Assembly (NCBI RefSeq): GCF_025526975.1
Contig: NW_026515668.1
Coordinates: 1,860,001 to 1,924,000 of the forward strand
Source: Fimicolochytrium jonesii
Lineage: Eukaryota
Direction of reading: 5' to 3'
DNA: 64,000 nt
The position numbers were made by a program, and so were the translations under genes. Positions within the stretch are counted from its first letter, which is position 1. The number at the start of each line of letters is the position of its first letter. This document shows positions 5,501-52,904 of this stretch, piece after piece. The notes under the pieces are model-generated. The model worked only from the letters and a program-made list of their open reading frames with translations, searched no databases and had not been told where the DNA came from.

Positions 5501-8500
5501 AAGATGCGGAATCTCACTCTCAGCAGGGCGTCAGACGCGCATGAACTCGTTGAGAAGCCTACGATGGTGGAGCCATTAGCCTTCCATTTGATTCAACAGC
5601 ACTATATGCTTGACGTCGATTTCAATGTAGGAGACTACGGCCAACTGCTTCGCGACGCAGTCCCGCGGTTCCTTTCCCGCCTCGGCCTGCTCTCCAAAGA
5701 TTTCACGTTCGCAACAAGCTCGGAACCCATGCTCAAGTTGGTGACCAAGCTGGTCGCGTTCAGACACGCGGAAGCGGCCCGGCAGCTTGTTAATATGCTG
5801 CCGGGAACTCCCGCTGTGAATTATCTGAAAGGCCGCGTATCGGCGGAATTGGGGGATTGGGAAGAGGCAGACACTTGTTTTGCGAAAGCAGTGTTCGGCA
5901 GTTTCGGTATGTCGGACTATGTAAATGGAAACTTTTGTGCCATTGAGGCGCACTAGCTCACTCTGCGGTTGTTCCCAGACAGGACGGAGAACTGGAGAAA
6001 AGATGCGGCCCTAAAGGAAGTCCTGCCTGCGGGAGCGGTTGAAGAAGGCATTGTGGGGGTGTACAAACATTTCATGCATTTATGCCGACGAGGCCACCAC
6101 CGGGGCGTCGTCAAGTACGCGAAGGAGGCGTTGCTGTGTATGAGCGATTTTCCAGAGGTAAGCCTGCAAAATATATTCTCTTGCATCTTGCATTGTCCGA
6201 AAGGTCACTGACGAAAGTGCATTCTCATCCTTCTCCTCAAAGGACCAAACCGAGCAGGTTACTCAGATCTGGAAGGAAATCTTCCGGTCCAGCCTAGAGA
6301 TCCCGGATTATGGGGAAGCACTCGCTGCGGCAGTCAGGAACCCCGACGAGCAGATGTAGGTCAATTGGACAAACCGCTGACGTCTTGATCAGAAGTCAGA
6401 CAGCCTCTGACACTTTTGTTTCCGCAGCAAAATCACATGCGTTCGTCGCCTGATCGGCCGCATGTGCGAGACGGGAGACATCAAAGCTCTATGCGGATTC
6501 AATGTCGGCCGTTTGCAGGACGAGGTCGAGATCGAATTGGCTAACAAAGCTCGCACGACGCCGGTTGAGCAGTGCCTTTCGGGCGGACCGAACTACTATC
6601 AGATTTTCTATAGCTACTGTGTGACTCATGGGGACTTCCGAACAGGTGAGTGTCGGAACGTGATCGTTTTCAGCGCTGCGGACTCCGTGCTTAATTCAAC
6701 ATGATGTAGCCGCGAGTGCTATGTACAGCTACGCGCAAGCGATCAACGCATTGACAAGCCGAATCACCGGAGGAGGAACCGGCGTGAGCTTGTTGACCGC
6801 ACTTCAACAACAGTGCGGGGCTTATTTGGCTGTCCTCAACGCTTTATCGTCTGTTGCGACCGAATATGCCTGGATTGTTGTCCCTGTGAAAGATGACAAA
6901 AGCAAAGTCGTAAGTGCTGAAATTGACTTGGTGACCACTTCCGACATACTTTGACACCAGATTATACAGAGCAAGCGCAGAAAACTGGATATCCCAGGCG
7001 ACGGTAAACAACCCATCAAGCAGCAAAGGATTACAACAAAGGTTCTGCAACCCGACGATGTCCGCAAAGAGTATCTGCTCTGCTTGACCAGGTTGAACCT
7101 GTACAACTCGTCCGCCGCCCTCCATCAGAGAACCATTGTCGGCCTGCCGAGTCCCGAAGATGCCCTCGCGCTCTATGTCGATGCAGGACGCCACGATGAT
7201 GCACTTAGCCTTGGACGTATATTCGAACTCGATCTGACGAAGGTCTTCGAAGCAATGGCCGAAAAGTGTGCGTTCCTCAGCACCCAGCCCCCTGATTTCA
7301 ACACGAACGACAGCATTGGGGAGAGTCTTACGGATGACCCGCGTGTGGATTGGGAAGGCACTTCTGCCGACAGAGCTTGGCGGACGTTGAATGAGTACCT
7401 GTTGGAGCACGACACTCCTCGCACGGGCTATGCTTACAGGTCTGCAGTGATCGACCGCGTGCTGCAAGTTCATCGCTCGTTCCGCATTCCCAAAGCGTGG
7501 ATTACCTCGTTTTACGATACACGGAATCCGGATGATCTGATTCGCGTGTACCTGAAGCATGATTTACTCGAGGAAGCTGCTTATTTCGTCTCCGACTATG
7601 TCAAATGTCAAGAAAAACTCCTGAGGGCACGGAAGACCGCGGGACGACCCTTGGATACTGCAAGCCGGCCGAAGTGGTTGCCTTACTTGCTGATTGATCA
7701 AACGATATACGAGCTGAAGAAACGTGGCTTAACGGAAGTCGCCGAAAACCTCGCAAACGCGGTAGCGAGCTATCTGAGACTGATTACGGGCGAAAGCGAG
7801 GAGGCTCTCGGTACAAAGTCGGCGGCTAAGCGCACAACAAACCTGACTGGCAAGAACGTCAGGTTTGAGCCCGATGTTTCTGAGAGAGTTCCGACCAAGT
7901 CCCAGCTACCGCAAAAGGTATTTCCAACGCAACCGAAGCACCCCCTGACGCAGACGCCGTCACAGCTGTTCTTCGAACAGCCGACGGAAGCAGCAAAGCC
8001 TTCGGCACAGCAAACTGCTACTCAACCGAAAAAGGCACCTTTGGCCTTTGGAAGCCCACCGACTTCAATCGATGACCTCGATACGACGACGGTGCCAATG
8101 GACACATCGGAAGCAGCCGACTCATCGCCACCCGCGGCGCCTAGATTCTCGTTCGGCCCGCAGGCATCAAAGGCAACGCCCGCCTTCCCAACGACAAAAC
8201 CCGCGCCGTTTGCATTTGGGTCAGGCCCGAGTGCCTCCGCACCATTCGCACCAACGAGCAGCTTCGCCCCATCTTCCCAAGCCCCACCTGCGCCATCAGC
8301 TCTGATGCCAGCCGCACCTTCATTCGGCTCAGCATTTGGATTAACTGCCGCCCCTGGCCAAGAGACTCGGAAAGCTCCCCCACCATCACAGATTACGGAT
8401 GTTGAGACAGGCGAACAGCTACCCCAATCGCCCGTGCCGGCGAAGAGACAGAAGAAAGTCGGCGTGCCCACCTTTGGATCAGCCTCATCCCTCGCAACGG

Positions 8501-11500
8501 ACAGTGGCTTCACCCGTGCACCAACTTCGTCGCAAACCCCGGCGTCGTTTCCAACCAGTACTTTCGGTTCGAGCCCGGCCCCTTTGTTCGGTAGTAGTGC
8601 CAGTGTGTCAGCACAGCAATCAATAGCACCTGCAATCGGTACACCACAACCCTTCGCATTTAGCACCGGCGTTCCTTCGGTGACCGCTGTCCCTGACAAG
8701 CCGAAAGCACCTGCAGCATTTTCCCTGGCTAATTTCGGAGCCAGTCAACCGCCTTCCGCGTTCGGCGCCTCGAAGAGTGCTGACCCACCAAAACTTACAC
8801 AGCCACCCATCTTCGGGGGCGTCTCTAGCTCGGAGCCCGCCGTTACCAAAACAGCTACTGCCCCGCCACCCACTTTCGGAGCTGCGTTTGGATCCAACTC
8901 CGCCTCGAGTGGAGGTTTCAGTTTTACACCTGCTGCTTCGCAACCGGCCAAGGCCTCTGCGTCGACGTCAACCGCTGGGTTTGGTTCATCGCCGGCACTG
9001 TTCGGTGCTTCCGCTGCGGCACCGGCATCTCCGTTCGGCGCGGCTCAGTTCGGCGTATTCAAGCCCGCTGACGACACTGCCAGACCGGCCGTCTCGGCGG
9101 CTCCTGTAGCGTTTAGTTCATCGCCAGCAGTGTTCGGCGGTGGGAAGCTCGCGGAGACCGCAAATGGGTCCATCAAGACTTCACCTGCGGCGTTTACATC
9201 TACGTTTGGCACGGCTCAATTCGGCGGAATCAAGCTGGCAGACAATACGGTAAACACTTCCGTCTCGGCGCCTCTTGGGTTTGGTTCGACGCCTGCACTA
9301 TTTGGTGCTGCGACGCCCGCAGCGACGGCGCAAGATCCTTTTATGACTTCACGTGCGGCATCTACGTCGACGTTGGGTACGCCTCAGGTCGGTGGATTCA
9401 GACCTGCAGAGCCAACTTTCGGGGCAGTTCAGGGTTTCGGTGGATTCAACCTCCCAGGGCCAGCACGTCAAACTGCTTTTGGGGTTCAGGCCTCCGGTGC
9501 GTTCACACCCGCAGAACCAGTGGATGAATCTTCCAAGAATCCCGGGTCAGCAGATGAATCGGCGTCGGCGCCTTCATTGTTCGGATCGGCTCAACCTTTC
9601 CGCGGTTTCAAAATACCTCAATCAATAGATCAGTCGGCCAACACCCCGACGTCAGCGCTTTCATTGTTTGGTTCTCCTCAGACTCTCGGCAGTCTCAAGC
9701 CTCCGCAGTCAGCAGATGCGCCGGCCAAGAGCTTGAACCCGGCGCCGCCATTGTTTGGGACTGACCAGACTTCCGGCGGTTTCAAACCTCCACAGACAAC
9801 GGAAGAACCACCCAAAGCTTTGGTTTCAACGCTCGGAACGACTCAGGCTTCCGGCGGTTTCAAGCCTCTGCAGGCAGCTGAAGAAGCAATCAAACCGTTC
9901 ATTCCAGCGTCCGCAGCGGCTCAGATATTCGGGTTCAAGCCACCGCAAGCAGCAGAGGATCCAGCCAAACCGTCCCTTCCAGCGTTTGGCGCCGGCCAAA
10001 CTTCTGAAGCCTTCAAGCCCGCAGAAGCAGGAGAAGAGCGACCCAAAACCTCTATTCCAGCGTTCGGTCCCTTTGGGGGGTCCAAGCCGGCAACGTCGGT
10101 AGAGGAGCTGTCCGAAAGCTCTACTTCGACCTTCGGCTCTTTTGGAGGGTCCAAGCCGGCAGCGTCGGCAGGGGACTTTTCCAAAACCGCTGCTTCAACC
10201 TTCGGCTCGTTTGGAGGATATACGCCTGCAGCGTCAGGAGAAGGGCAGCCCAAACCCTCTCTTCCAGCCTTTGGATCTCAAGGATCTAAACCGGCAGCGG
10301 TTGAGGAGCAGTCCAAAATCCCTGCCCCAGCGTCTGGCACGTCTCAGGTTTTCGGTGGATTCAAGCCCATCCCGGACTTCTCGGCGAGAATTGTTCCAAC
10401 ATCCAGTTTTGGCGGCGTCCAGGTCGGTTCCACCGACTCCGCCGTGCCGAGTTCCCCACCAACAGAGACGAGGGCTGAGATGCATGACGATGAGGGGGAT
10501 TCGGAGACCGCCACATCTGACCCAGTAGCAAGGTCCACCCCCTTCGGCGCTGGTAACTCTGGCCTTGCACAGCCTTCCGGAATGTTTTTCGAGCCCCAGT
10601 CGGAAGAGCAAAGCGTCCCTGAACCAGCAGCGCCCAACTCAGCTCCACCGCCTAGGTTTGGGACCTCCACTGGTGCACCTTCCACATCAGCGCAATCTTT
10701 CGGAGCTGAGAATTCTGCGTCGAAAAATGATGTTTCTGAATCATTAAGGACCGTTATGACGCCTGCAGGCGTTTCGGAAAAGGCTTTAGCAGAGGAAGCT
10801 CCTGGTAGCGATATCTCCGCGCCTGCGAGCTTCACTGCTCCACTGGAGACGATGGCTCCACCTACCGGTTTCCAATTCAAGGTCCCGCATCCTGCGTCGC
10901 GCCCCTCTGGCATCGCATCAGCCGCGCCCATATCCGTTGCATTTGCTGGATTTGGGAACCAAACGGTCACACCAGCAACGTCGCAGACCGCGGCTTCAAA
11001 TGCCCCCGGTGCATTCAGTGGGTTCGGGAGTGGATCAACGGTTGCCCCGGCTTCCACGGGGCAGGTGTCGTATTCGCCAAAGTTTCCAGCGGCAACTCCG
11101 AGCTCCACAGGCTCAGGGGTTGGCTTTGGTGTTTCTAGCCAAACGCAGCCGTCGAGCTCAGCGCCGATTGCTATCTCCAGCTCGTTCAAACCAGCAGAGA
11201 CAATTTCCGGATTTGAAGCAGCCGCGCCCTCCACGTCCAAGAGTGAAGAGTCACTAGAAGACGAGGACGAATACGAAGACCCCCCAATCCCGGTCTCGTC
11301 CGCATCACCCACGAAAGGTAATGCTTTGCTCTTTACGAAGCCATTAGGGTTTGGCACGGGGTTCACGTTCGCTCCAGCGCCCATCCCCTCACCTCCGAAC
11401 CCATGCTCATCCGCCGCCTCATACTTAGCCACGCCGGCGTCGTCTTCTACCCCAAGAACATCAACCACATCGGTTTCGGGCGTAACGACGAGCACTCCGC

Positions 11501-12321
11501 TTGCAGAGGCGGGGACACACCCGGCTTCGATGGGATTCGCGCCGCTGTCGCATGCGTCGACGGTTTCGGCTTTTGCGAGTGCGTCGGACCCGGAGCTGAA
11601 CAGAAACTCTCCCAGGCCCATCAAGGTTACGAAGGGATTCCAGGCGGCTGCGTTGCCGGGGACGGCGAGTCCGCTGGCTTCACGTGATGGGTTTGGAGAT
11701 GCGTCGGAGGCGCCTGTCGAACCTACCCCTTCTGCGACGGCACCTGCGTTTTCATTCGGGTTTGGGTCCGGAATCGGGGCCGGGCCGGCTGATTCCCAGG
11801 CGCATACCGCGCATGCAGCGTCAACCCCTTCATTCGGGTTCGCAGCCCCGCAACCTAAAGCAGCAAGCAGCCCCCCACAGTTCACGTTCGGAATGTCCCC
11901 TGCTGCCGCCACGCCGAAGGCGGGAACAAGCTCAGGCTTCAGTTTCGGATCGACACCCCTCGGGTCAACGCCTACCAGCACCACTTCGCAAGAAGCAGCG
12001 TTCGGTACCACCGTCCCCCCGCCCAAATTCTCTTTCGCGCCAACGAACAACCCGGCTGCGTCGTCCACTCCGTTCACATTCACGCCCTCGACGAGCGCGG
12101 CATCGAGCAGCACGCCGCTCACGTTCAATTTCGCTAAACCGGTCACCGCTACGGAGGAGGATGACAATACCGCGTCGACTTCGGCTTGCCCACCAGCCCC
12201 GGTCCCCGCGTCCCCGCCACGGTATGCAGACCATGCGGATGCGGAGAGCGAGGAGGTGTTTGTGCCTGTGACGAGGGGCAAGAGGGGGAAGAGGAAGAGT
12301 GCTAGCCCGGTTAAGGAATGA
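2585..12321 (+). CDS. NUP160: Nucleoporin Nup160/Nup120 with a very long C-terminal FG-repeat extension
   Basis: Exons 2585-5906, 5979-6157, 6243-6355, 6428-6645, 6710-6909 and 6961-12321 keep frame. Nup160-like motifs LSRDRQLRIWNL, NYYQIFYSY..HGDFRTAASAMY and WLPYLLIDQ, followed by ~1,450 aa of FG/FSFG repeats. Confidence 0.85.
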
Positions 12322-17254: not shown

Positions 17255-19560
17255 TGTCGGCCTTCCCCACCAACAAACCATCGCCACAACCAGCCTCAAC
17301 GAGGACGACACCATCCGCTCAACAAACGACGACGCTTCCATCTCTCCGACCTCGCGTACAATAGGTTATAAGCCCTGCTTGCGAAGCCGAATAGATCTAA
17401 GGTTTAGTTTCGTACAAAGAAATAGTAGTAGTAGTGGAACCATCGCCACGGGTGCCCCATCGGCGGCCCCGTCGGCACCCGATCTCGCAGATCCCTCACT
17501 CGATCCCTCACTCGATCCCGCACAGCAGATCACACTGCAGAAGCGCACACGGCGCGCACGGCACGCAGAGCCGCAGAGGAATACAAGGAGATCAGAAACC
17601 GGGGGAGACATCGGAGGGAGCAGAAGAAAGGATGGGGCGGTACGAAGAAAGGCTTGTCACGCTGGAGAAGGCCACTCTCACGCTGGAGAAGGCTAGGGAA
17701 GATCACAGAAGGTTCATGGAAGATCAAAAAAGGATGCTGGAAGTCATCATGAGGCAAATTGCACGGCTCCAAACCGCAGAGGAGAAGGAAGCGGACGGAA
17801 TTCTGGAGAAGGAAATCGTCGTACCGAGAAAGAAATTATGCCCACGCCCATCGCTCCTTGCAGGCTGTGCGGCATCACCGGGCACTGGACCAGAGCCTGT
17901 CCTGAACTCGAAGCTGCGAAAACATACTTGAGAAGCGGAACACCAACGAAGAAAAAAGAAGCCGAAGCGAACCTCGTCCTCGGTACCCCCCGCAACGAAG
18001 ACCATAGTATCGCGCTCAACCCGCGCACCTTCAAAGCCGATGCCGAACGACACTGCGAAACGAAGATCAAAGAACCTCGCTGCGATAACGGAGGAAACGG
18101 AATCGCCGAAAGGTTGAACCGCACGATAGCAAATCAAAGCTCGCACCACCATACAGCACACCGGGAACGTACCCAACCTCCGCAACGAAATAGCGTTCAC
18201 GGACTACCTGCGTCAGCGCACACCGAGTGCTGCTACGAACGAAGCGCCGTACCGAGAATGGCTGCGCAGCGCACACCGAGTGCCGCTCCGAACGAGACGC
18301 CTTACCAACGAAAATGCATGGAGGAGAAGCCGATATCTCGAATCAACTGTGGTGCGAAGCCTACCTACAAATCCCGTCATGTTACCTTCAACGAAACGAT
18401 CGAAATCTTCGAATCCCGCGATATGACCTTCAACGCAGCGCATTATCGAAGCGCAATTACTACCGACGTAGACGTTGAACATATCGAAAAGAAAATCCTG
18501 CTTTCGCGCGGCGCTCAAGGCGACCTGCTCGGCGATGGGGTTTTGGGGGAGAACGAGGAAGAAAGAGCGCACGTTCGAAGCGCAACTACCGATGACAAGG
18601 ACGGCGAAATCGTACTACCGGCTATCAACGCAGACACGTCCGAGATCCTCAACGCAGCGCAAGTTCGAGGCGCACCTACCTACCGGCTATCCAACGAAGA
18701 AACGATCGAAATCTTCTCATCTCGCGATGCGGCTATCAACGAAGCGCACGCTAGAAGCGCAGAGAAGAACCACGAACGAAGCTCGGCACCTACCGGCTAG
18801 TCAACGAAGCGCTAACAGTAATGTGGTTGAACCACGAGTCGAACACCAGATGCACGTCATGGGGTATGCGAAGACGCTGCATTCGTCCATCAACTATCCT
18901 GCGAGAGTGTCTCTGCGCACCAACTACTGAAGACAACGACGCCGACGAAGATGGCGAAATCGTACTACCGGCTATCCACGAAGAAACGTTCGGGACCGAC
19001 GAAGAAAAAGCGCAGGTTCGAAGCGCACCTACTGACGACAACGAGGGAAGGTAAAGCGCACGTTCGAAGCGCACCTACCGACGACGACGCCGACGACGAT
19101 GGCGAATACAATATCGAAAAGATCCTTCTCTCGCGCTCGAGACGACTCGCACGGCGACGGGGATCGGGGGAAGAAAAAGGAAGAAAAAGACACGAAAAAG
19201 GGTTATCGTCGCCCCCGTACACGACGCAGGAGAGCGTACAACATACGCACGCGAATGGCACGCGAAGCGCGCAAGAAATGAAACACAACATCGGGCACGA
19301 AACGGTCGACTCGAAATACGACATCCCGTACCTTCCGAAGCCCGCGCTTGCCCATCTACGGTCGCTACAAGGGATACATCCCCCCGAAAACGAAACTCCG
19401 TGAGAGAAACGTTGTATATGCACGAAAGAAGAAGAAGAAGCGCAGATCTGAAGAAAAAAGGAGGAGAAGCGCAAATCTGAAGGAAAAAGGTGGCACGAAG
19501 CCGAGCGCCGGAAAAGGGAGCGATGTTGGTCAAGTGAAAAATGTTGACTTCACCCCTACG
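17255..19560 (+). mobile_element. Decayed, internally deleted Ty1/copia LTR retrotransposon
   Basis: Copia-type PBS-like sequence ACA-ATAGGTTATAAGCCC at ~17358-17375. Coiled-coil gag-like ORF; zinc knuckle CRLCGITGHWTRAC; integrase fragments RCDNGG/NGIAERLNRTI and SRHVTFNE; RNase H-end-like LAHLRSLQGI; purine tract GGAAAAGGGAGCGA followed by TG at ~19510-19525. Boundaries are approximate. Confidence 0.8.
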
Positions 19561-19570
19561 CTGTCGGAGG

Positions 19571-19700
19571 TACAGTCAGTTATCAAAAAGCTGTGCACCC
19601 CCCTGAAATAAATCAGCGACTGCCGTAACGCCAAATTCACGTGAGGACCGACATTGATTTCAATTAGAGGGGGTGCACAGCTTTTTGCTAACTGACTGTA
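19571..19700. mobile_element. Tc1/mariner-type MITE (TA target-site duplication, ~31-bp TIRs)
   Basis: Left end TA-CAGTCAGTTATCAAAAAGCTGTGCACCCCC; reverse complement of right end TA-CAGTCAGTTAGCAAAAAGCTGTGCACCCCC (1 mismatch). No coding capacity. Confidence 0.9.
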
Positions 19701-19990
19701 CCATTTCTCACCGCGTTTTACTAGTCAACTACTAGTTCATTTTGAGGAGAAATTCGCCTTCCGATCGCGTCAAACCTATGTCAACCGACTCGAAGTCGAA
19801 GAAGAAGAAGAAGAAGGCGTATGGAAGTTGGAGTAGGGGGAGCGCTGTACTGAGATGAAGAAAAAGGAAGCTTGTGTGCTGCATCGCACAACATCCATCC
19901 TTCCCCGTACTTCCCACGTCCTCACCGCAAGATGGACTTCCATGTCCCACTCCACCCTATATATCTCCTCTTACCCCTCATCCCCACCCA

Positions 19991-27273: not shown

Positions 27274-29550
27274 TTAGTGTGTGCAATCTAACTTGACGCC
27301 GGTATTCAAACGGCCGCTAGTTTCGCTCGCTCGATCGCATACAGCATCGCCTTGAACATCTACAAAGAAACCACAAACCCGCATCAGTACCCAAACCAAT
27401 ACCGGACCTAAACACGTCTCACCAAAAAAAACCCACCGTCTGAGACTGCCCCCCCTCCTCATCAGCAGCCTCCACAACCGCCCTCGCATTCCGCGCCATC
27501 TCATCAAGCGTGGTGATCAACTTCGCGGCCTTGGCGTCGTTGCGGGCCTTTTTGGCGGCCCAGAAGGTGCGGAGGAGTTCGGTCGCTGTTAGATGGTAGG
27601 TTTGGAGGGTTGCGGGTGGGGGCGGGATGTCTAGTTTGGCGATGGTGAAGAGGGGGATGTGAATATGCTGTTTGTGGGATGTCGCAGGGGTATGGAACGG
27701 GATCAATGGGATGTTTCTTACCGTCGCCACGTTGATGATCCCGTTTTCGCTTCCGTGTCATCTCGTTGAGTTGTTTGAGGACTTTGTCCGCGTTCGAGCG
27801 GTACACCGATGTCTGTGGATTGCTGCATGATCAGAAGGGAATGCCACTTGGTCACACGCCCACCAGAGGATTCTCGCACCTTCGCTAATTGTGGCTGCCA
27901 CCCTAGAATGGTCTGCCGCAAACTCTGCTTGAAAGAAGCAGAATAGACGGCCGTGACATCCTCCTGGCCCGCGGCACTCCCAGCCTGTGCATGGTAGTAT
28001 TTGCTAACGTCGCCAATCATCAGTGCTTTCGCGGCCTGTTTCTGCTCTACTCGTAGGTCGTCCAATTCGGTCGACTCCTTGTACACCTCATCGGCCGGTT
28101 TCGCCGGCTTGGGTAGCGACGCCTGCCCCGCCAAGGTCGATTTTAAAACACCCTCCGAGACGCGGTTGAACTGTCGAATGAGCGGTAGAGAAGCTCTCAC
28201 TCCGCCGGCTCGCATCGTGCTGTCTGGTCGGTTGCCGGTCTCGGTATGGTCCTCGCTTTGCGCGCCGAGATCCAGAAGGTAGTTCGAACTCTCGTAGCTT
28301 GCCGCTTTGGGGTGTTCGGCGTAATCATCGTCATCCTTGGTCTCGTATTTCGCAAAGAACTCGTCGCTGGCTTTGATGGACGCCCCGGCCCGTTTTTGGT
28401 AGTACTTGGACTCGAGGAAGCGGCGGAGGAAGTCTTCGGTGGTTATCTTGTTGGTTGTTACGGTATCATCGTAGGCGCGCTTCACTATCGGATACTGCGA
28501 GAGTATCGACGTGATCATCTCATTGGTGACCTTGTACGTTGTTTCGGTTCCATCGGACCCATTCCCACTCGGGCGGAGTTCAATAATGACTCCTGTCGGC
28601 CCTTTTCGTTGACTCCGCTGCCATTTCTCTTGCGCCAGTAATTCCTGCACGAAAAGCTGTCAGCTTGGGTGAACGAACGCTTGAAGCGGCGCGGCAGCGA
28701 CGGTCGACTAAACGAGTGGTCGAACGAGAACCCATGTCCAACGCTTTGCTCGCGAAAAATCCAACGCTCGCCGGTGCTTGCTAAAAGCCGTAGTGAGGCG
28801 AACATGCGGATTTGGCGCAGTGCGAACTCCCTTCGCTCGCGAAGGCAATCGTCCTGGGACTACGACCTATAGCTCGCCCTCCTCAAGCAACCCCGCGCCT
28901 CAGGCTCGCCGCAGTCCGGATCCGCCCCATCACCGTAGCAACATGCTCCATAACACTCGGAGCTCCGTTGTGCGAATCAACCCTCGCCTATGGCTTGCAA
29001 ACACATACCTGCCTCGCCGCCCAAAAATCGTCCTCGGAGATCAACCTCGACAAAACAAGCGAAGCATGAAGTTGCTTCAGATCCTCGTCCTTCCTCAAGA
29101 TATCATGCCGGATCTGCAAATCCTCATTCGTCGTCGTAGGCTGCGCGACCGCTTTGATCGTCCTGTTATTCGCCTGAATAACATCTCCAAGGAGTGTGAT
29201 GACTCTCGCTCTGTTTTCGACCGCGTCGGGTGCGAGGAAAGTGAGGTTGTGGTTGACCTCGGGCTGTTCGGTGTCGTCGGGGGAAGACTGGGTGACTTTG
29301 AGGATGGGTTTTGCGGGGTTTTTGTTTTGTGCGATTGCTAAACTCACAGAGGTGGAACTCGATTAGCACCTGGGCACGATGACTCTTGGGAGGGAAAGAC
29401 TGGGAACGAACATTTGACGGTCGGATAAGGAACTCGCAGTGCGGGAGTGTCAGCGCCTGTCTCTGTCCAGCTGAACTCCCGCTGGCCAAAGGTGAGGGTG
29501 CCTATGCTTTTGAGGTAGGAGGCGCTGCATTGTAAGCGTGGGCCTGCCAT
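27274..29550 (-). CDS. TFB1: TFIIH subunit p62/Tfb1 (PH plus BSD domains)
   Basis: N-terminal PH-like segment, BSD motifs (LKQLHASLV..ISEDDFWAAR; ILSQYPIVKRAY..FLESKYY), ETGNRPDSTMRAG, ELLRTFW. Confidence 0.9.
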
Positions 29551-29723: not shown

Positions 29724-31061
29724 ATGGCTCCCACAACCCCCGCAACAACAGTCTGGGACACGAAAACCCAGCAGTTCCACGGCGGACAAGAATGGCAGTT
29801 CATAGACAACTTCGTAGAGGACTTTTCAGTCACCACAAACGGACTCGGGCTACCCAAAAAGGCTCTCCAGGCCGCGAGAGACTCCCTCGATATCTCCCAC
29901 CACTATCCAGCCGCTGACCAGGAACCTGCAAAGACGAACTTGGCCAAATTCTATGCGCCAGACGGATTCGAGAGTGTTCACGAGCGGCTTTTGTTGGGGA
30001 ACGGCGCGAGCGAGCTTATTGACTTGGTCACTAGGGCGGCACCTGAGGGGCCTTGGAAGCCGGGTCCTTGGACTGTTCAGGTATGTGGAGGCGAGTCAGC
30101 GATAGCGAACGGTCATTTTCATCACTCGCGCGTCGTCGTCAAGAATGGTTAATGGTTGACGTTCGATGGCTGATGATTGATGTTTTTTCATATCCTTTCT
30201 CATAGTACAAAGAGTACGAACGCTCAGCGATCGCGCTTGGCCGTAAAGTGCTTGCGCCCAAGGATGCGACGCCCGCCTCGCTTACATGTATCGTCAACCC
30301 CAACAACCCGACCGGCGACTACATGAACATCGAGGCGCTCAAGAAGTACATTGAGGAGACGGTTGCTGATAACACTGATGTCATGGTTGGTGAGTAAACA
30401 TAAGATCAAGGGAATGGGGCGTCTTGGGAGATCCCCATCTCACTCACTCTCCATCCAACCCCCCACAGACGAATCAATGCAACCATGGCACTCCCCCTCC
30501 TTCCGCTCCGACTCCCTCATCTCGCAACCCACCTGGATCGCCAACCTCTTCCAAACCCGCGGCATCGCCGTCTATCTCATCCACTCCTGGACAAAACTCT
30601 GGTCCTGCACGGGTCTCCGCCTCGGCTCCCTCGTCTGCCCGACCGTCGCCCACTGCACCGCCCTCAAGAAGGTCCAGGTCCCGTGGTCCGTCAACGTCCC
30701 TGCCCTCGCTTTCTTGCAGGTTGTGACTTCAAGCGACGAGCAACCGTTTTTGGATGAGACATGGGCGGTTACCACCCCCTGGCGCACGTACACCGTTGAC
30801 GCTCTCACAACCCTCGGCCAACACGTTAACAGCGGGAAAGGGTGGACGATCACCGGCGAACCCTTCCTCTCGTGGGTGTGGATCGACATGCACGACGCGG
30901 AGGTAGCGGCGCAGGCTGTAGAGTTGGCGAAACGCGCCGGTGTGCCGGTGCGGAGCGGCGTGCCGGGGTATGCGTGCCATACGTGTGTTAGGGCGGCGGT
31001 GAGGAAGCCGGAGTTGGTGGATAAGCTTGTGAGGGCTTGGCAGCCGCTTGTTAAGGCGTAG
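29724..31061 (+). CDS. PLP-dependent class I/II aminotransferase (HisC/CobD-like)
   Basis: FHGG..DFSVTTN, LGNGASELID, VNPNNPTG, DES, SWTKLWSCTGLRLG (PLP lysine); two introns. Confidence 0.85.
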
Positions 31062-34533: not shown

Positions 34534-37014
34534 ATGGCCATCTTCTTTTGGAGAAAGCAGCAGGTGAGGAAGAACGGGACTGTTGCAGGGGCGGGATGGT
34601 GGAGCGTTGTGCTCCGGGTCAGACGTAGAACTGGGCGGGCCCGCCAGCCGGCCCCCGTCTTTTACGAAATGGACGGCCCAAGATGCTGGCGGGTCAAGTC
34701 GAGGCGAGACGTAGTGCGAACGAGGGGGACAACCTCCTCCTCCTTCCTGCAAAGTGGTGGTTAGGGAGGCGGACGTACATTAGTGCCTTCGGCGCCACCT
34801 TGATGGAGAGCCTCTCAAACGAATCCCCACCATCATCACCCCACTCACACAGCTCTCAACCCACCCCCAACAGCTAGACGACGAACAGATCCTCGCCAGC
34901 CTAGACCGCCAAATCCGCCGCACAGAGGTCCGCGTCTCCTCTATCCGTCAACGGCATCAACGGATCAAGCATGCGTGGCTTTATTACTCTGTCTCAATCT
35001 ATGTGTTTGTGCTCGTGCTGTATTTTACGTATTTGAAGCCACGACGGGATCCGTGGGATATTTGGCTGGTCAAGACGGGGGTTGTGGTCGTGGGGGCGCC
35101 GGGGTATGTATTGCGCACCGTAATACCGAGCGTTAAGCGAGGACGAACGCAGCGAAGCGAGCAGAACTGTGAGCGACAGCGAACGATCGTGTATATGACA
35201 CATCGCTCTTTCATCGTTCATGTCTTGCCTCAACAACCTTATCGCGAGCGGAGCGAGCACGGTGTTGTTTTCATCCCATCATGCACTCTCACCGAGCGAT
35301 CACTCATCCATCTTTTTCCTCTCATTCGACCGACAGCATCTACTTTGGGAACCGTTTTATCCGGTACTGGTACCAACGGAAAGAAAAGGCTGAACGTTAG
35401 TGGATCTCGTGCAGAGAATGGTTTTACGATCACGCGAATCTCACCTCTCCATTTTGATTCCATAGGGGATTTATTGGAAAGTCTGAAAGCGAAACAAAAG
35501 GAGAAGGTCGACGCACTGAAAGAGAATGAGGCGTATCGGAAGACACAGCTGTTGTTGCAGCGATATGACACACCGACGAAGGATCGGCCGGCTGGGGTGA
35601 GTTACTCTGGACTTTGCATTGTGACGAAACGATGAGTTTTGTTGGCTCACCGCCTTCATCTGAAGGATGAACTTGTGGACGCAAAGGGACATAGCCGCCC
35701 GACGACTCCTTTACCGTTCCCGCCGTCTCATATCAAAATGGGGCAGCCGTCCAAACAAATGGGACCACCTAGTCTTGCGCCGCCGGGTACACCAGGTGAG
35801 GGAGTTCGTGATCAGCATCTGGTCGATCACGCTGAAAATGTCGTTAATCGCGGACAATAACCCCAGGAATGGCGCCTGTACCAGGAAAACAAATAGACAA
35901 CCCAACGCAAACCACACGCTCCCCATCCCCGTCCCCAGCCTTCCTCTCCATCCCACCCTTCGACCCCACCCAACTACCAAACCGATGTAAGCCGTCCCAG
36001 CCCATCCCAACCTAATCCGCACCCGCATCCATCCCTAAACCATTCCAATATCAGCAGACTCACCCTTACCCCCACCACCAACACCCACGCCCCAACACCC
36101 GTACGCCAAAACATGGTTCGACAAAGTAATCGACGTGATGATCGGCGAGACGAACGACACAAACAGCCCGGCGAGCAAGTATGCGTTGATTTGCGAGGAG
36201 TGTTTTACGCATAACGGGTTGGTGCCGGCTGAGGCTTATTCTGATGCGCGTACGTATGAGATATCATTTTTTTCGTTCGTCCCGTTTCCTTTTCTTCCGC
36301 CTGGGGGTGTGGTCCGTTTCCTTTCCTTCCGCCTGGGCGTGTGTTGGGGTGATGTAAGACCAACGATGACGTTTGTTGAGTTGAATTTATGTTTTCACCG
36401 TAGGCTTCCGCTGCATGCGCTGCGACCACCTCACCATCCCCAAACGCTACGCCAGCATGATCTCCCCATCAAACCTCTCCCCGTCCCAGTCCATCCCCAG
36501 CGACCTCAACACCGCCAGTCCGCGGCATACACCCCCTCCACCCGGGGGGGACGGCGGCCACGTTGCGTTTGCGGACAGTGCGAACGGGAGTGGAGGGATG
36601 ATGTATATGAATCCGAAACTGTCGCAGAGCCAGCCCGCGTTCTTTGCGCCCAGGCATAGTGTGAATCCGTTGGAGGGCCCGCCGCCTGCTGCTGGTGCTG
36701 CGCGGTCTGCACCCGGACACCGAACGGAGAATACGGGCGTTGGCGAGGAGGAGGAGGAGGACATCGCCCCGCCTGCGTCTGGACCGGAACAACAACTACA
36801 CCACGAACAGGAAGCGGCTGCTACGCCGACACCCCCGTCTTCCCAGCCCCAACCGCAACAACAGACGGAAGAAGACGGAGGGACGGGAATGAGACGTCGG
36901 CCGAACGAGAAAAGGGGCGGCCGCGGGAGGAAGGCGGGCAAGGCGGGGAGGAGGCAGGAGGGAACGGGGACGGGGACGGGGACGGATAGTGAGCGGGAGG
37001 GTGCTGTGGAGTGA
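34534..37014 (+). CDS. LNP1: Lunapark ER-junction protein
   Basis: N-terminal EQILASLD, two transmembrane segments, LKAKQKEKVDALKE..YRKTQLLLQRYD, zinc ribbon WFDKVIDVMIG..YALICEECFTHNGL..FRCMRC. Confidence 0.9.
35104..35336 (+). repeat. Lunapark intron 2 carrying four GA-bracketed hairpin units
   Basis: CCGAGCGTTAAGCGAGG, AGCGAAGCGAG, GTGAGCGACAGCGAAC, GCGAGCGGAGCGAGC. Confidence 0.75.
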
Positions 37015-45024: not shown

Positions 45025-47358
45025 CTACTCATCCCCACCGACCTCACCCTCCCCGTCCACAACATCCACCACCTCCACCACCGCCTTCTTCTCCCCTTGA
45101 GGAGGATGCACATACCCGGGCTGCATATACTCGGGCTTCTTCTCCTTCAACACCTTCGCATCCGCCGTCAAAAACCACGCGTAGTCACAGCTGCGGCCAT
45201 CGACTATACGGATCCAGTCGTCAAACCTACAAAATCACATACCATCACATCAGATCATAGCGTATCATCGTATATCAGCAGAGATAGATAGAGGGAATAT
45301 AACTCACGCGTTAGTCTCAACCTCCTCCTCCACCAACCGCGAATAGATCCATTTCTCCTTAAACGCGTCAATCTCGCCTTCGTAAGCGTCGAACGAGACG
45401 CCGGCGCGGTCGTTGGCTTCTGAGGCCCATTTTTCGTTGTACATCCTGTAGACGGTCTGAATCAAATCGTAAGGGTTTAAATGAATGTTGGGCAGTGATG
45501 GGGGAATTGGGGAGGATGGGAAAGGGTTTTGAACGCATACCCGCTCGAGCAACAACCCCAACGCGGGCGCTTTGGGGATATTAAGTTTTTCTTTGAGGAA
45601 GGCTTCGTTGATGAGGGTGGCCGGGGTGGAGGTGCGGATCATCAGGATCGCCAGGCCTGAAAAGAAGTTGCGTTCGGTGAGATCGTCAATGGTGTCTCGT
45701 AGCGAATTCAGCAATGGGGAAGAGATACGTTACCAATCATCTTGCGGATCTGGTGCAGCATGAACGATTGCCCAAAGATCTTGCATTTGACCCATTCCAA
45801 ATCGCCGCGGATGATGGGGTCGCTGACCTGTATGTCAAAGAAACGAAGTGACCTGAGCGACCATGTCCCGAAAACGATACGCGTCCACCCCAAAAAAATG
45901 CATAAAGGGATAGCCTACCGTCAAATCGATCATGAATCGCATCGCACTACTATCTCCAAACCCCTTCCCCACCGTAAAATTATGGAAATTATGCGTCCCC
46001 TCATACCCCTTCAACGCCTCCCTCAGTTTCCCCAGTCGTTCCTCCCCAATCCTAAACGCCCTCCTTGCCGCCAACTGATCCGCCGTCGGCTTCGCCGTAA
46101 GATCATCGAAGGATTCATTGGCGTGGGTGGGCAGCTCGGTGGTGGATATCCCATGGGATTTAGCGAGGGCGGAGAAGGGGTAGAGGTAGGGAGCGGCCGG
46201 GGCGAGGACAAAGGTGGGGAGAAAGTATTCGTAGATACGGGAGTCGCAGGCGTTTTTGGCGTGGAAGGCGTTGGTGGTGCGGACGTAGCCTGGGGTGTGA
46301 GGCAGGGAGGGTGGTTTAAGTTTTAGGGTAGGGGATTGGGGTGCATTGTCAGAGGGATGTTATAACGCACCCCAGACACGTATTTGCTCTGGGAGATGTT
46401 GGTTGATTTTTGAGATGATGGTGGGGTCTTCGATGATCATTTTTAGGGAGCAGACTTGGCCGGCTGCGTGCACGCCTTTGTCTGTTCGGGCTGCGCGCAT
46501 GAATTGGATCTGATAGGAAACATAATTGAGTTCCTGTAAGACGAGTGCGATGCCTTATATACCCCGTATGCATACCTTTGCCGGGTCGTTCGCATTGTCT
46601 TTGCTGACGGCGCCTGATTCTGCTAGTGCTTTATGCAGCTCTGCTTCGATCGTTGCGACTCCGGGGTTGCTGTAAGAATCAGGGAAGGGAGATATCAATG
46701 ATCGTTTTCACTATCCTCCATCATGTAAGGGATCCCGAGCGCCAGCCGAGTGGTCAATGAGCGAAGCAGCTCCCTTCGCTCGCTAACGCTCGGTCTCACC
46801 ACGCTGCGGGATCCCGGATCGAACCAACCACTCCCTCGCCTACGGCTCGCTCAATACTCACATTTGCATTCCATTGTAACCAGTCCCACAATACCCCATC
46901 AAGAGCGCCACCTTCTTCTTTGGCAATCTCGGCCCCGAATCCTCCGCATCCCCTCCCTCTCCTCCTCCCTCACCCTCAGCACCCTCCTTTGTCTCCCTGG
47001 GTCCCCAAGCTCTCCCCCGCTTAGCACTCTGCGCCTTCCCACTTGGAGCGGTCCTGCGTTTGTTCTTACTCCTTCCACTTTTCTTGTCGTTGGAGGTGGC
47101 TATGACAGAGACGTCGGGTGAGTCGTCGCCATCGGGCGTGTCGAGGCCTATTGAGCCTGTGTTCTCTGTTGTTAGTGGTGCTGTGGGTGCTGAGACACCG
47201 ACACCTTCGCCTGCGGTTGCTGGGAGGGAGGAGGGGGTTGAGAGGTCTAGTTTTATACGTTTGTCGGCGGGTGCTCCTTGCGAGTCCGCGGCGACCTCTT
47301 CTGCGGAGCGTTCCCGTTTGGAGCCTGCAGCGAGAGTGGAGTCTGTTTGGTCCGTCAT
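45025..47358 (-). CDS. PUS1: tRNA pseudouridine synthase 1 (TruA family)
   Basis: KKKVALLMGYCGTGYNGMQ, ARTDKGVHA, CDSRIYEY, GTHNFHNFT, GQSFMLHQIRKMIG, IPKAPALGLLLE. Confidence 0.95.
46670..46861 (-). repeat. PUS1 intron 1 carrying GA-bracketed hairpin units
   Basis: Sense strand ATTGAGCGAGCCGTAGGCGAG directly after the donor, and CCGAGCGTTAGCGAG. Confidence 0.7.
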
Positions 47359-48182: not shown

Positions 48183-50650
48183 ATGGAAGAAGTGTCCCCG
48201 CTGCTGACCCCCTCGATCGACGCCGAAACGCACCCGTTCAAGTTCTCGGCGCTCAAGCTCGAGAATCCCATCCTGCCCGTGTCCATCCCGTTTGTCGCGG
48301 AAAAGTCGCCGAGCCCGCCGACGAGCGATACGACTGTGTCTGATTACGGGGATGGGAATGGGCATGGGAATGGGAATGGGAAGACGGGCGGGACGGCGCC
48401 GGCGGCGGACGAACCGGGAACGGCGCGAGAGCAGGGAGAGGAGGTGAAGAAGAAGAAGTGGGGGGATGCGACGAAGGTGAAGCCGGGGGAGTTTGAGCCG
48501 GAGAGGCATTTCTATCCAAGGGTTTTGAAGTGAGTAGGGACAGCGACAGGCGGGTCTGGCGAGCGCAGCGGGGCCTGGTGCTCCATGTCCAGCGAAGGAA
48601 AAATTGAGCGAGCGAAGCGAGCCTCCTGCGTTCTGCGAGGGGCAGCGAATCCATCTTCTTCATCCGCAGCATCGCTGTTGCGAGCGTCGCCATCATCTCG
48701 TTAAACACATATCTCATACGATCCTACTCCTTCCCTCAAACTCCCCTCCAGCGCCAACATCCACCCTCTCGTCGCCTCCTTCTTCTCCCTCGGCAACGAA
48801 CGCATCATCGCCCGCTACACCCACCTGAACCCGCAGGTCGACATGGAAGCGCTCACAAAACTCCTCGCGTACAAACCCACCTACTTCCAGTGGGCCGGTA
48901 ATGTCGTTCCGATCCCGTACTTTTTTGCATCATGGAGAAAACATTTGGGGGAAGAATGTAATTGAACGAGAAAAACCCACCCGGGGATTCTAGGATCGGA
49001 CTTGTTCAATGTGACGACCGCCAGCGGCCAACGCCAGATGATCATCGTCGAGACCAATTCGTGCCCGTCGGGTCAGAAATCGATGCCGTTGTTGTCGGAC
49101 CCTGAGGAACATGGCGGTTACGGTATGCGCGTCTCCCCCTCTACCCTTTTCCCCCATTCCCATGGCCCCCAATCTCTCACGCCCCCATTCGCCCACCAAC
49201 AGGTATAGTGATCTCCCGCACCTTCCTCCCCCTCCTGCGCACGCTCCCCCCCACCCTCGGCGGCCTCGCCGTCGTCTACGACAAGAACATGATGGAGGCC
49301 TCAGGCTACGCTGCCGTCATGGCCGAGGTGTGTGGCGAGGAGGTTTACCTGGTCGAGTATTACCTGGAGGACCCGGACCCGCCGGTCCAGTGGCGGGACG
49401 GGGTGATGTGGGTTCGGGATCGGGTGAAAGGTAAACTGTCCCAAAAACCAAAACCCTCCGTTTCTTTTCCCTATGGTTTTGGGGGGGTGGGGTGGAACTG
49501 ACGACAGTATTTTCATTCCATTTTTTTTCTTCAAGAATGGCATCCGATCCGCGCCTGTTTCCGCTACGTCACGCAAAAGCCCTGGTCGCGGTTCCCGCTG
49601 TCCACACGCACGCTCGTGCTCAACAGCGTGATCTCGTGTCTCGCGGGCGGCCGCAACAAGATGATGGCCGCGCGCGCGTACGATTTCCTCAACGCCGAGC
49701 TGGCCGGGACCGGGCTGGGCGTGCGGGTGCCCGAGACCATCCGCAACGTCACGAAGGGGGAGATCCCGCTCTGGCTGGATAGTATGGGCGGGCATGCGGT
49801 GGTCAAGGTGCCTTACTCTAACGCTGGTAGCGTATCCGTATCCCTGCCTTTGTCCCATGCCCCACGGTCCTAAACATGTTATGATAACACTCCCCCCGTA
49901 AAGGCCAGGGCGTCTACACAATCACGACCGCGACCGAACTCTCCACGTTCATGTCGACCCCGCACCACTACGGCAAATTCATCGTGCAATCCCTCGTCGG
50001 CAACGCGTCGTGGTCGTCCATCTCGCGCACGGGCCGCTTCTACCACGTCGGGACCATCCCCAACAAGAAGAACCACACCTTCGTCACCGACCTGCGCTGC
50101 ATGGTGTGTGCCGACGCCGGCGGGTTTGCCCCCGTCGCGATATACGCGCGGAGGGCCAGACGCCCGCTGCTGAGGAGGCTGGAGGATGACCCCAGTGGTG
50201 CGTTTATCCATGTGTGCTTGGTCCTACCCCGTTGGGTCAACTAACCCCTCGGTTTTACTTACGGCCCCTGTAGTAACATCGTGGGAGATGCTGGGCACGA
50301 ACCTCTCGGTGCGGCTCCCGAGCGGGGACTGGACGACCGAAGCGCAGCGGCTGCTGCTGATGGACCGCAAAGACTTCAACCAACTGGGGCTCGGGATCGA
50401 CGACCTGATCGACGCGTACATCCAGACGGTGTTGAGTGTGATCGCGATCGATAAGATGGCGGGGCGGTTGATGCGCGTGAGGAAGGGGTTGGGTGAGCGG
50501 AACGAGCGAGAGGGGGGCGAGGTGCAGGGGGACGTGGGGGGTGGGGAGGGGGACGGGCAGAAGGCGTGGGAGAGCGAGTATGAGTTTGATTTGGAGTTGT
50601 TTGAGGCGTTGAATCCGGATAAGGCGCTTTTGAAGGAGATTTTGGGGTGA
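48183..50650 (+). CDS. Uncharacterised ATP-grasp-like (glutathione-synthetase-like fold) protein
   Basis: Multi-exon ORF with [40 protein letters not shown] and DLRCMV, a pattern resembling circularly permuted ATP-grasp ligases. Alternative start at 48117. Confidence 0.65.
48530..48751 (+). repeat. ATP-grasp gene intron 1 carrying GA-bracketed hairpin units
   Basis: GCGAGCGCAGCGGG at 48559 and ATTGAGCGAGCGAAGCGAGC at 48603-48622. Confidence 0.7.
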
Positions 50651-51176: not shown

Positions 51177-52904
51177 TCAATCACCACCATGATCCTTCTC
51201 CTTACGAGTCTCCACCACCGGCTCGCCGTCCTCCAGCACCGTGCGGTTCACAACGCTCTTCACAGGCGCACCGGTGGTGGTCTCAGACCCCTCCGCACCC
51301 TCAATCTTCCCCTCGACCACCTCCGTCTTATCGCCCTTCCTCTTCTCCACCCTGATCTCGGCCCCGTCAACCCCGCTCTCCGCATCCTTGACCTCCTCCG
51401 CAACCTCCTCAATAAAATCCTCCACCGTCTCCAAGAGCCCCTCGGCTTCAGCCTCATTCAGCGCATCCGCAGGCGTATAAGTCTCCCCCCTAATCCTATG
51501 CGTCAAAAACCGCTGGGTCACCGTAACATCCAGCACAAAGTCCGAATAAAACCCAAAACAGCAGTGCTTGAACGCCGGCCAGCGGTATGTGGGCCCCAGG
51601 TCCGGAGAGAGGTTTTCGGTGTAGGAGAAGGCTTTTGTGTGCAGGAGGGCTGCGATGGCCATTTCGATGCAGAGGATGAAGGCGTTGAGGGAGTTGGAGA
51701 TTTCGAGGGAGGACCAGTGAGGGGTGGAGTGGATGATGTGGGTGTTGGAAAGGATGGAGATTGTGACGCTTTGCCAGAAGGAGAAGAAGATTACGAACTG
51801 GGTGGGAGGGATCAAGGGAGGTAATGAGTGGGTGGACCTAAAGGGGTGGCAGAAAGAACCGTTCGTCGGGTCAGGTACTCACCTTGATGGAGACGAATTT
51901 CAGGACAGGGTGATATCCCTTCAACTCGCTCTTTATCGTAGTATAAATTTGCACCAACGCGAACATTGCCACCGTAACGCTAATCGAGTTGACAATGATA
52001 ATCCACAGATGCGCAAACCGCGGACTCATCGAATCCTCACAAAACTTCCCCGTCAACTGTGTCACCACCGCCAGCACAGTCGTCACGGGTCTCAGCACCA
52101 CATACTGCAGCGTGCCAATCTTGCAATAATGCAAGAAATGCGGGCGCGAGGGGCGGTACGTCCACCGTTGCAGCGGGAATACGAAATTCATAGTGGGTTT
52201 CGAAGCGAGCACTTCGGCTTGCGCTTGGATGTCGGCGCCGATGTAGGCGAGGAGGAGCTGGAAGAACTCGTAGATGACGACGGCTTCGTAGCAGTCGCGG
52301 AGGACGTCGAGGTAGACCGTCATGCCGCGGAAGGCCAGGCCTAGGCAGGAACACACGCTGTAGACTGGGACCATGAACAATATCCGAACGATGTGTTTCT
52401 AGAATGTATGAGGGAAGGAATGAGTGTGTGTGAACCATCGACCATGGACCATCGATCGTCAACCATCGAACGTCAACCATTTAACCACTCATCAACAGGT
52501 ACGATTATTATGAGGAGAGTCTTGCGCCTTTGGCGCAATATGATCCTCGCTTCGCTCGCACAAGATCTGACGCTCGCTGATGCTCGCACTCACGGCGTTC
52601 GTCCTCGCTAGCGCTCGGTATTACAGTGGACTCGTTCACGTACCTGATAAACGGGCGAATGATAATACCCCCAATGCTGCCAAACCAACAAAAAGCTCAA
52701 GCACACGGAAAAAACCGTAAACGCGCCACTCAGCGCCCACCCAACCAAAAACAAATGATACCCGTCACTGTCAGGCGGCGGTGGACCGTGGTGTTGCGGG
52801 GGCATTGGGCAGTCCCAGTCTGATATGATCGGCTGCGGTGAGTCGTGGGTGGGTGGTGAGCCGGCGAGGAGGGTTTGGAGGAGAAGGGGTGGGAGGGGCG
52901 ACAT
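51177..52904 (-). CDS. TMEM184: TMEM184/organic solute transporter Ost-alpha family protein
   Basis: QKHIVRILFMVPVYS, RDCYEAVVIYEF, GTLQYVVLRP, KFVSIK..FSFWQ, CIEMAIAALLH. Confidence 0.92.
52399..52643 (-). repeat. TMEM184 intron 1 carrying three GA-bracketed hairpin units plus a 3' block shared with another intron
   Basis: Sense strand CCGAGCGCTAGCGAGG, GCGAGCATCAGCGAGC, CGAGCGAAGCGAGG; 3' block TGGTTAAATGGTTGACGTTCGATGGTTGA. Confidence 0.75.

Follow-up and report, generated by a model that had tools for sequence, protein, structure and literature searches.

Within a window of 64 kb of DNA from the soil chytrid fungus Fimicolochytrium jonesii, to which all internal counts given here refer, the first introns of a PLP-dependent aminotransferase gene and of a TMEM184/OST-alpha gene share a degenerate array of heptamers with a GATGGTT-type unit. 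This is a real remnant of an intronic repeat, not remarked upon before and of a kind that is known in general terms; most likely, it derives from an ordinary repeat or mobile element that was incidentally co-opted for branching in one of the two introns, rather than being a self-contained splicing module. The preferred explanation, to which we assign a probability of about 0.5, is that both arrays have decayed from a short dispersed repeat, copies of which entered introns already in place. The features on which this rests are:

30081 to 30205, forward strand: intron 1 of the PLP-dependent aminotransferase gene, 125 nt, phase 0; its junction, between WTVQ and YKEY, agrees with annotated KAI8827162.1.
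52399 to 52643, reverse strand: intron 1 of the TMEM184/OST-alpha gene, 245 nt, phase 0, placed by Pfam continuity and an open junction.
30143 to 30185, forward strand: degenerate heptamer array of six units in the aminotransferase intron, containing the 28-mer of the preliminary description (self-BLAST, TRF and unit analysis).
52433 to 52490, reverse strand: degenerate heptamer array of eight units in the TMEM184 intron, with an internal 14-nt duplication (self-BLAST, core search, TRF and unit analysis).

A protein named as that of F. jonesii matches the aminotransferase exon at 100% identity, the next relatives being from Powellomyces and Spizellomyces at 71-72%, and the F. jonesii annotation includes both host genes (KAI8827162.1, aminotransferase; KAI8827170.1, TMEM184). 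The NCBI model of TMEM184 starts at the Met of exon 2, so that intron 1 of this gene is predicted and unconfirmed by the annotation; positions 2-33 of Pfam PF03619 in exon 1 run on as positions 34-206 in exon 2. That KAI8827170.1 is without the Pfam-matching first exon (52644-52904, reverse strand) may reflect an erroneous model or hint at intron retention. For comparison, 62 introns were picked by hand, guided by a simple constrained gene finder; seven with wrong coordinates were dropped and 55 with GT/GC-AG ends were kept, all of them predictions apart from those of the aminotransferase, for which the annotated protein provides confirmation. The 55 introns have a median length of 78 nt, with 11 of them longer than 105 nt.

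The preliminary description had reported that a 28-mer of the aminotransferase intron recurs in the TMEM184 intron with one indel and one substitution, and both strings were found exactly so, in sense orientation and in the 3' half of each intron (nt 66-93 of 125 and nt 157-185 of 245, respectively). In a self-BLAST of the window, the full local alignment pairs 30143-30182 of the forward strand with 52490-52450 of the reverse strand; it spans 41 columns, of which 87.8% are identical, and scores 49.1 bits (E=1.3e-5). It had been allowed that the match might fall within chance expectation; it lies far above the shuffled controls, its score being matched in none of 30 locally dinucleotide-shuffled windows, where the best off-diagonal match gave 41.0 bits. 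An 18-nt core occurs three times in the window at three or fewer mismatches, with 0.04 occurrences expected. When the 55 curated introns were compared with one another (2970 pair-orientation comparisons), the aminotransferase-TMEM184 pair scored 55 and a second pair, formed by TMEM184 with an intron of the Lunapark gene, scored 60; these two alone clearly exceed the best pairs of 20 shuffled intron sets (26-34). The next-ranked pairs, with scores of 35-27, involve four more long introns and one unrelated pair, and every one of the top nine pairs is in the same orientation.

The further reiteration of the heptad in TMEM184 was recovered by TRF (52434-52480, period 7, 6.7 copies), which likewise called the aminotransferase copy a tandem array (30145-30184); these are the only heptamer arrays in the window. 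Harder nulls were used for the arrays because tandem arrays match one another easily. The observed alignment score was reached by 30 of 5000 permutations of unit order and by 50 of 5000 simulated pairs (1%) of pure arrays decayed independently, and the six derived bases that the arrays share were reproduced in 6 of 20000 simulations of independent decay, all three values being approximate since the heptamer unit was inferred from these same arrays. Six colinear units carry common derived variants in both arrays, which favours copying from a common source over convergence.

Outside the array, the two introns show no significant likeness at either end in an anchored end comparison (ranks 102 and 151 of 1485 pairs), and homology of the whole introns, at which some alignments hinted, was rejected as neither end is significant. 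No direct repeats longer than 3 nt were found flanking either array and no inverted arms around either occur among the 25 longest of 68 inverted pairs; with neither terminal inverted repeats nor such direct repeats, element boundaries cannot be drawn. Complementarity between intron halves is weak in the aminotransferase intron (reached in 10 of 300 shuffles) and absent in TMEM184 (195 of 300). Neither intron folds significantly better than its shuffles (RNA z of 0.08 and -0.18), nor do the arrays fold as DNA (z of 0.6 and 1.1). Both arrays begin approximately 420 nt 3' of the ATG (422 nt, 29724-30146; 417 nt, 52904-52487), which is probably a coincidence.

The arrays belong to a wider patchwork in which five or six long introns resemble one another piecemeal on the sense strand; its further components are:

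52581 to 52628, reverse strand: 5' block of the TMEM184 intron, in common with the Lunapark intron, containing one mini-hairpin motif; a second motif lies at 52556-52547.
35104 to 35336, forward strand: Lunapark intron, 233 nt; contains the 5' block in question at 35116-35163 and three motifs, and no heptamer array.
30098 to 30108, forward strand: AGCG-NN-AGCGA mini-hairpin motif near the aminotransferase donor.
46670 to 46861, reverse strand: intron 1, 192 nt, of a gene presumed from its motif to be PUS1-like, with mini-hairpin motifs and an internal inverted duplication.
48530 to 48751, forward strand: intron 1 of an unnamed gene, 222 nt, with motifs; the sole intron to pass a held-out k-mer test.
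28645 to 29008, reverse strand: intron of a BSD-domain gene (Pfam match below cut-off), presumably TFB1-like, 364 nt, with an AGCC-NNN-GGCG variant.

The Lunapark block (35116-35163) aligns with 52628-52581 of TMEM184 at 85.7% identity over 49 columns. Thus, the earlier observation that the 5' and 3' parts of the TMEM184 intron match different introns was borne out, the 41 columns shared with the aminotransferase intron forming the second part. In donor-anchored comparisons, Lunapark-TMEM184 and TFB1-PUS1 are ranks 1 and 2 of 1485, and the donor-proximal 30 nt of the TFB1-like intron match the PUS1-like intron. The flanked motif AGCG-N(N)-AGCGA, which was defined post hoc after inspection of these introns, occurs nine times in the window; eight copies are on the sense strand of five long introns and none is antisense in an intron, with 0.05 expected, while the sixth long intron, TFB1-like, carries the variant instead. 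These introns span 125-364 nt, against the median of 78 nt. The unflanked core is modestly enriched (10 sense, 3 antisense; shuffled mean 2.6, maximum 9), and the held-out 8-mer test on 52 other introns returned 7 sense and 6 antisense matches, supporting the intron at 48530 only. The core of the 5' motifs equals the consensus of mini-hairpin DNA, GCGN(N)AGC (PMC13037366). The PUS1-like intron folds well (RNA z of -2.8 sense and -3.5 antisense), and it contains an imperfect inverted duplication (8 of 300 shuffles) of roughly 70 nt with a 9-nt repeat on its flanks; the Lunapark intron folds no better than its shuffles (RNA z of 0.54).

Several smaller observations concern the same introns. A perfect donor-like GTGAGT lies inside the TMEM184 5' block (52593-52588, reverse strand), and the GCGAG of the mini-hairpin motif is one transition from the donor-like GTGAG; no internal intron was seen by eye as would mark stwintron-type nesting in the donor. 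Another long Lunapark intron owes its length to a 32-nt tandem duplication (36282-36343, forward strand) and has no motif.

The aminotransferase intron itself keeps one mini-hairpin motif and a weak match to Lunapark (score of 25, reached in 8 of 1000 shuffles). It is therefore not purely the carrier of a 3' module, and its content fits uneven loss from one longer repeat equally as well as a swapping of modules. Of the modular element proposed earlier, the shared repeat and its common origin stand, and the modularity is weakened by this decayed piece of the 5' motif. We envisage a progenitor composed of a mini-hairpin block followed by a heptamer array, which would have inserted between donor and branch point and left splicing intact. 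Loss would then have differed from copy to copy, with slippage altering the number of units; TMEM184 would have retained the two blocks, Lunapark that at the 5' side, and the aminotransferase intron one motif together with the array, such that the apparent mosaic would reflect uneven loss among copies. Two arrays in 64 kb would imply either many copies genome-wide or local copying.

For the aminotransferase gene, the host intron would be older than the repeat. Among 80 metagenome loci encoding a relative, 73 align in one piece and are uninformative, two have frameshift-like breaks, and five contain introns. Three of the latter (L051, L063 and L071, with closest named proteins from Mortierella at 91%, Paraglomus at 82% and Rhizopus at 90%, respectively) have a phase-0 intron at the identical codon boundary; L002 has no intron there, and that of L080 lies a few codons upstream. 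Most simply, the position would predate the split between chytrids and Mucoromycota. The repeat was searched for in the orthologous introns of the three loci and is absent from them, which, coupled with the ancient shared position, indicates that it arrived after the intron. With TMEM184, 121 of 150 homologues run across the boundary without a break and three join there from short or unrelated N-termini, which provides a hint only; a further search for the intron position gave one match, and one for the PUS1-like gene gave a single uninformative match.

Similarity confined to the interior of introns has been described as the signature of secondary transposable element or microsatellite insertions, which are the common alternative to Introners where similarity does not reach both intron ends (Gozashti 2022, PMC9860276). 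The shared array is restricted to the intron interior and consequently fails the end-to-end criterion and fits the alternative, with which it also has in common part-intron similarity, a partly tandem make-up and an old host intron position. The chytrid copies differ from such insertions as there described in being sense-biased, intron-only and accompanied by DNA mini-hairpin motifs, with no transposable element boundaries found. Also against a dispersed repeat, no clear copy was found outside introns in the 64 kb, where a DNA element inserting at random would be expected to have left some. Assignment to MITEs or other DNA transposons with terminal inverted repeats is not supported, there being no inverted arms around the arrays among the 25 longest of 68 inverted pairs and no flanking direct repeats of more than 3 nt. 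The most likely reading would be a modest addition to knowledge, namely an undescribed family of chytrid intronic repeats; it would explain the length of some introns, two to four times that of the usual ones, and would offer a possible instance of a branch point co-opted from a repeat.

Among the competing explanations, the one that survives best, albeit as a rather unlikely reading, is that the repeats are decayed, nested or merged Introner-like elements that spread in sense orientation only via transcripts, sometimes into existing introns, the TMEM184 intron being a merger of two members. The sense-only and intron-only distribution of the mini-hairpin motif, the length of the introns, and similarity that begins near the donor in Lunapark-TMEM184 and TFB1-PUS1 are all in keeping with this, although the motif behind the sense orientation in transcribed genes was chosen post hoc and the held-out test was weak. 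There is precedent in the Introner elements (IEs) of Micromonas, for which sense-only insertion, 32 remnants inside conserved introns and the nesting or merging of IEs are described by Verhelst et al. (2013; PMC3879977), and Introner-like elements (ILEs) have been reported to be gained in parallel, close to old positions (PMC4457414). However, distances of 63 and 154 nt separate the start of the match from the donors, and it stops 23 and 51 nt short of the acceptors, rather than coming in both introns to within approximately 10 intronic nt of either splice boundary. Of the at least four end-to-end similar introns that the class calls for per genome, the 55 curated introns of the window show none. 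In a supplementary table of Gozashti 2025 (PMC12130899), the number of Introner families is given as 0 in both entries of F. jonesii and in the listed rows of P. hirtus and S. punctatus. In addition, the aminotransferase intron is not at a new position, sharing it with L051, L063 and L071, and stable RNA structure of the ILE kind is lacking in the aminotransferase, TMEM184 and Lunapark introns, only the PUS1-like intron reaching -2.8.

The chytrid repeat would work most like the remnants and merged elements of Micromonas, with sense-only copies, remnants in conserved canonical introns and composite introns, yet by the tests run it is not a member of that class; it differs in that neither the window nor the genome-wide screen already published shows a full-length family of high identity (PMC3879977). 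With the ILEs of Dothideomycetes (Collemare et al., PMC4457414) it has in common introns exceeding regular length and degenerate sequence and length, whereas the chytrid introns are without end-to-end similarity, without a stable fold in two introns, and at an ancient position in one. Chytrid mitochondria contain double-hairpin elements, which are short and possibly mobile hairpin repeats (PMC10085805, as reported second-hand). Compared by description only, the present motifs differ in being nuclear and intronic, the array has no hairpin, and there is no regular double-hairpin unit; of two adjacent GC-rich hairpins, the mini-hairpin motifs are present and the arrays do not fold.

Also unlikely is local templated copying without a mobile element, by which break repair or template switching between nearby transcribed introns, followed by expansion through slippage, would have generated the patchwork. 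All six introns lie inside 24 kb, the best matches lie at distances of 17-22 kb on a single contig, short tracts are shared with different partners, and neither target site duplications nor terminal inverted repeats were found; the inverted duplication within the PUS1-like intron is further consistent with such events. This process leaves unexplained, however, why the mini-hairpin motif recurs in one orientation in five introns.

The preliminary description had further proposed that the module may supply its own branch site through TTGAC. A branch model, fitted to 44 short introns and seeded with the fungal consensus, gave CT[C/G/A]A[C/T] and placed the branch A between -10 and -46 (median -23); the best sites that it predicts are:

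30168 to 30174, forward strand: GGCTGAT in the aminotransferase intron, A at 30173 (-33), 5.6 bits, inside the array; prediction only.
52420 to 52426, reverse strand: CACTCAT in the TMEM184 intron, A at 52421 (-23), 9.0 bits, outside the array.

TTGAC is present in both introns but is the best candidate in neither. Just one of the 44 ordinary introns has it as best site, and at -47 in the aminotransferase intron (A at 30159) and -61/-75 in TMEM184 (A at 52459 and 52473) it falls beyond the range inferred for the window, scoring 2.8 bits in the former and -1.8 bits at both sites in the latter. Other predicted sites in the aminotransferase intron have their A at 30180 (-26, 4.9 bits), also in the array, and at 30190 (-16, 3.7 bits), outside it. 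The substitution noted at the outset creates CTGAT in the aminotransferase array; the T-to-C change would thereby have brought one unit to consensus, and it is now the predicted branch point, while TMEM184 is predicted to use its own CACTCAT. By this model, the array is predicted to supply the aminotransferase branch point, by a small margin and not via TTGAC. As for a module with its own branch site, the two best predicted sites of the aminotransferase intron do lie inside the array, but that of TMEM184 lies outside; these predictions speak against a branch-point cassette, and the self-branching module as first formulated is not supported by the model.

The predicted site within one array would also suit a selected cis-element of long 5'-proximal introns, acting as a splicing enhancer, as a branch-site cassette or, close to gene starts, as a target of symmetric adenine methylation, an explanation that we regard as improbable. 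Five measured introns begin 261-570 nt after the ATG, and each array holds six VATB sites, a number reached by 0.26% of 43-nt windows; F. jonesii has more than 1% 6mA, and VATB is the 6mA motif in Phycomyces (PMC11258239). Nevertheless, VATB richness is a trivial consequence of the GATG unit, the array is present in only two of the 11 long introns at a variable distance from the acceptor, and it is absent from the orthologous introns. Pairing of the arrays with upstream sequence is not beyond shuffles (492 and 447 of 1000), nor is long-range pairing with the 5' motif (best case, 70 of 1000), and the donor-branch distance is not shortened by the array.

A long shot, taken with all of its features together, is a mobile repeat coupled to transcription or splicing and specialised in existing introns; it would enter in sense orientation behind the donor, carry DNA mini-hairpins on the non-template strand, recombine its blocks between introns, and may give its host a new branch point. 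If this were true, old introns would be gradually rewritten from inside with their positions unchanged, and screens for Introners would miss it by design. Should the sense-only, intron-only pattern hold genome-wide, it would point to spread linked to splicing or transcription that renews ancient introns and is invisible to end-to-end Introner searches. Least credible are two independent minisatellites that share a unit by chance, since, despite both being low-complexity tandem arrays whose score independent decay reaches at the 1% level given above, this would require the same heptamer twice in 64 kb, six shared derived bases in order and an unrelated 49-column match to a third intron.

A published description of the decayed dispersed repeat that we favour was not found in literature on chytrid introners, on Fimicolochytrium (among the titles listed) or on the double-hairpin elements of Spizellomyces, and a literature search with the 12-mer motif returned unrelated titles only. 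Exact patterns of the 3' array and the 5' block have 0 occurrences in viral contigs, as has the array in prokaryote genomes, and the TMEM184 intron gave only chance-level matches to plasmids and phages (E of 0.06 or worse; 2 and 15 records). Known intronic non-coding RNAs, such as snoRNAs, were not found, Rfam giving 0 matches at gathering score in the 64 kb and, over 28600-53000, a single chance match (E=5) outside these introns.

Other repeats occur elsewhere in the window. A MITE-like element of 134 bp (19569-19702) has 34-nt arms that are 97% complementary and ends in CAGT...ACTG, flanked by TA; we take its termini to be of the Tc1/mariner type. It is adjoined by what is possibly a decayed mobile element (17700-19500, forward strand), a region with degenerate internal repeats and a zinc-knuckle match below cut-off. 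Finally, the last exon of Nup160 (6955-12321, forward strand) extends approximately 1500 residues past the Pfam TPR domain and includes repeats of 69-87 nt at 8976-10367.
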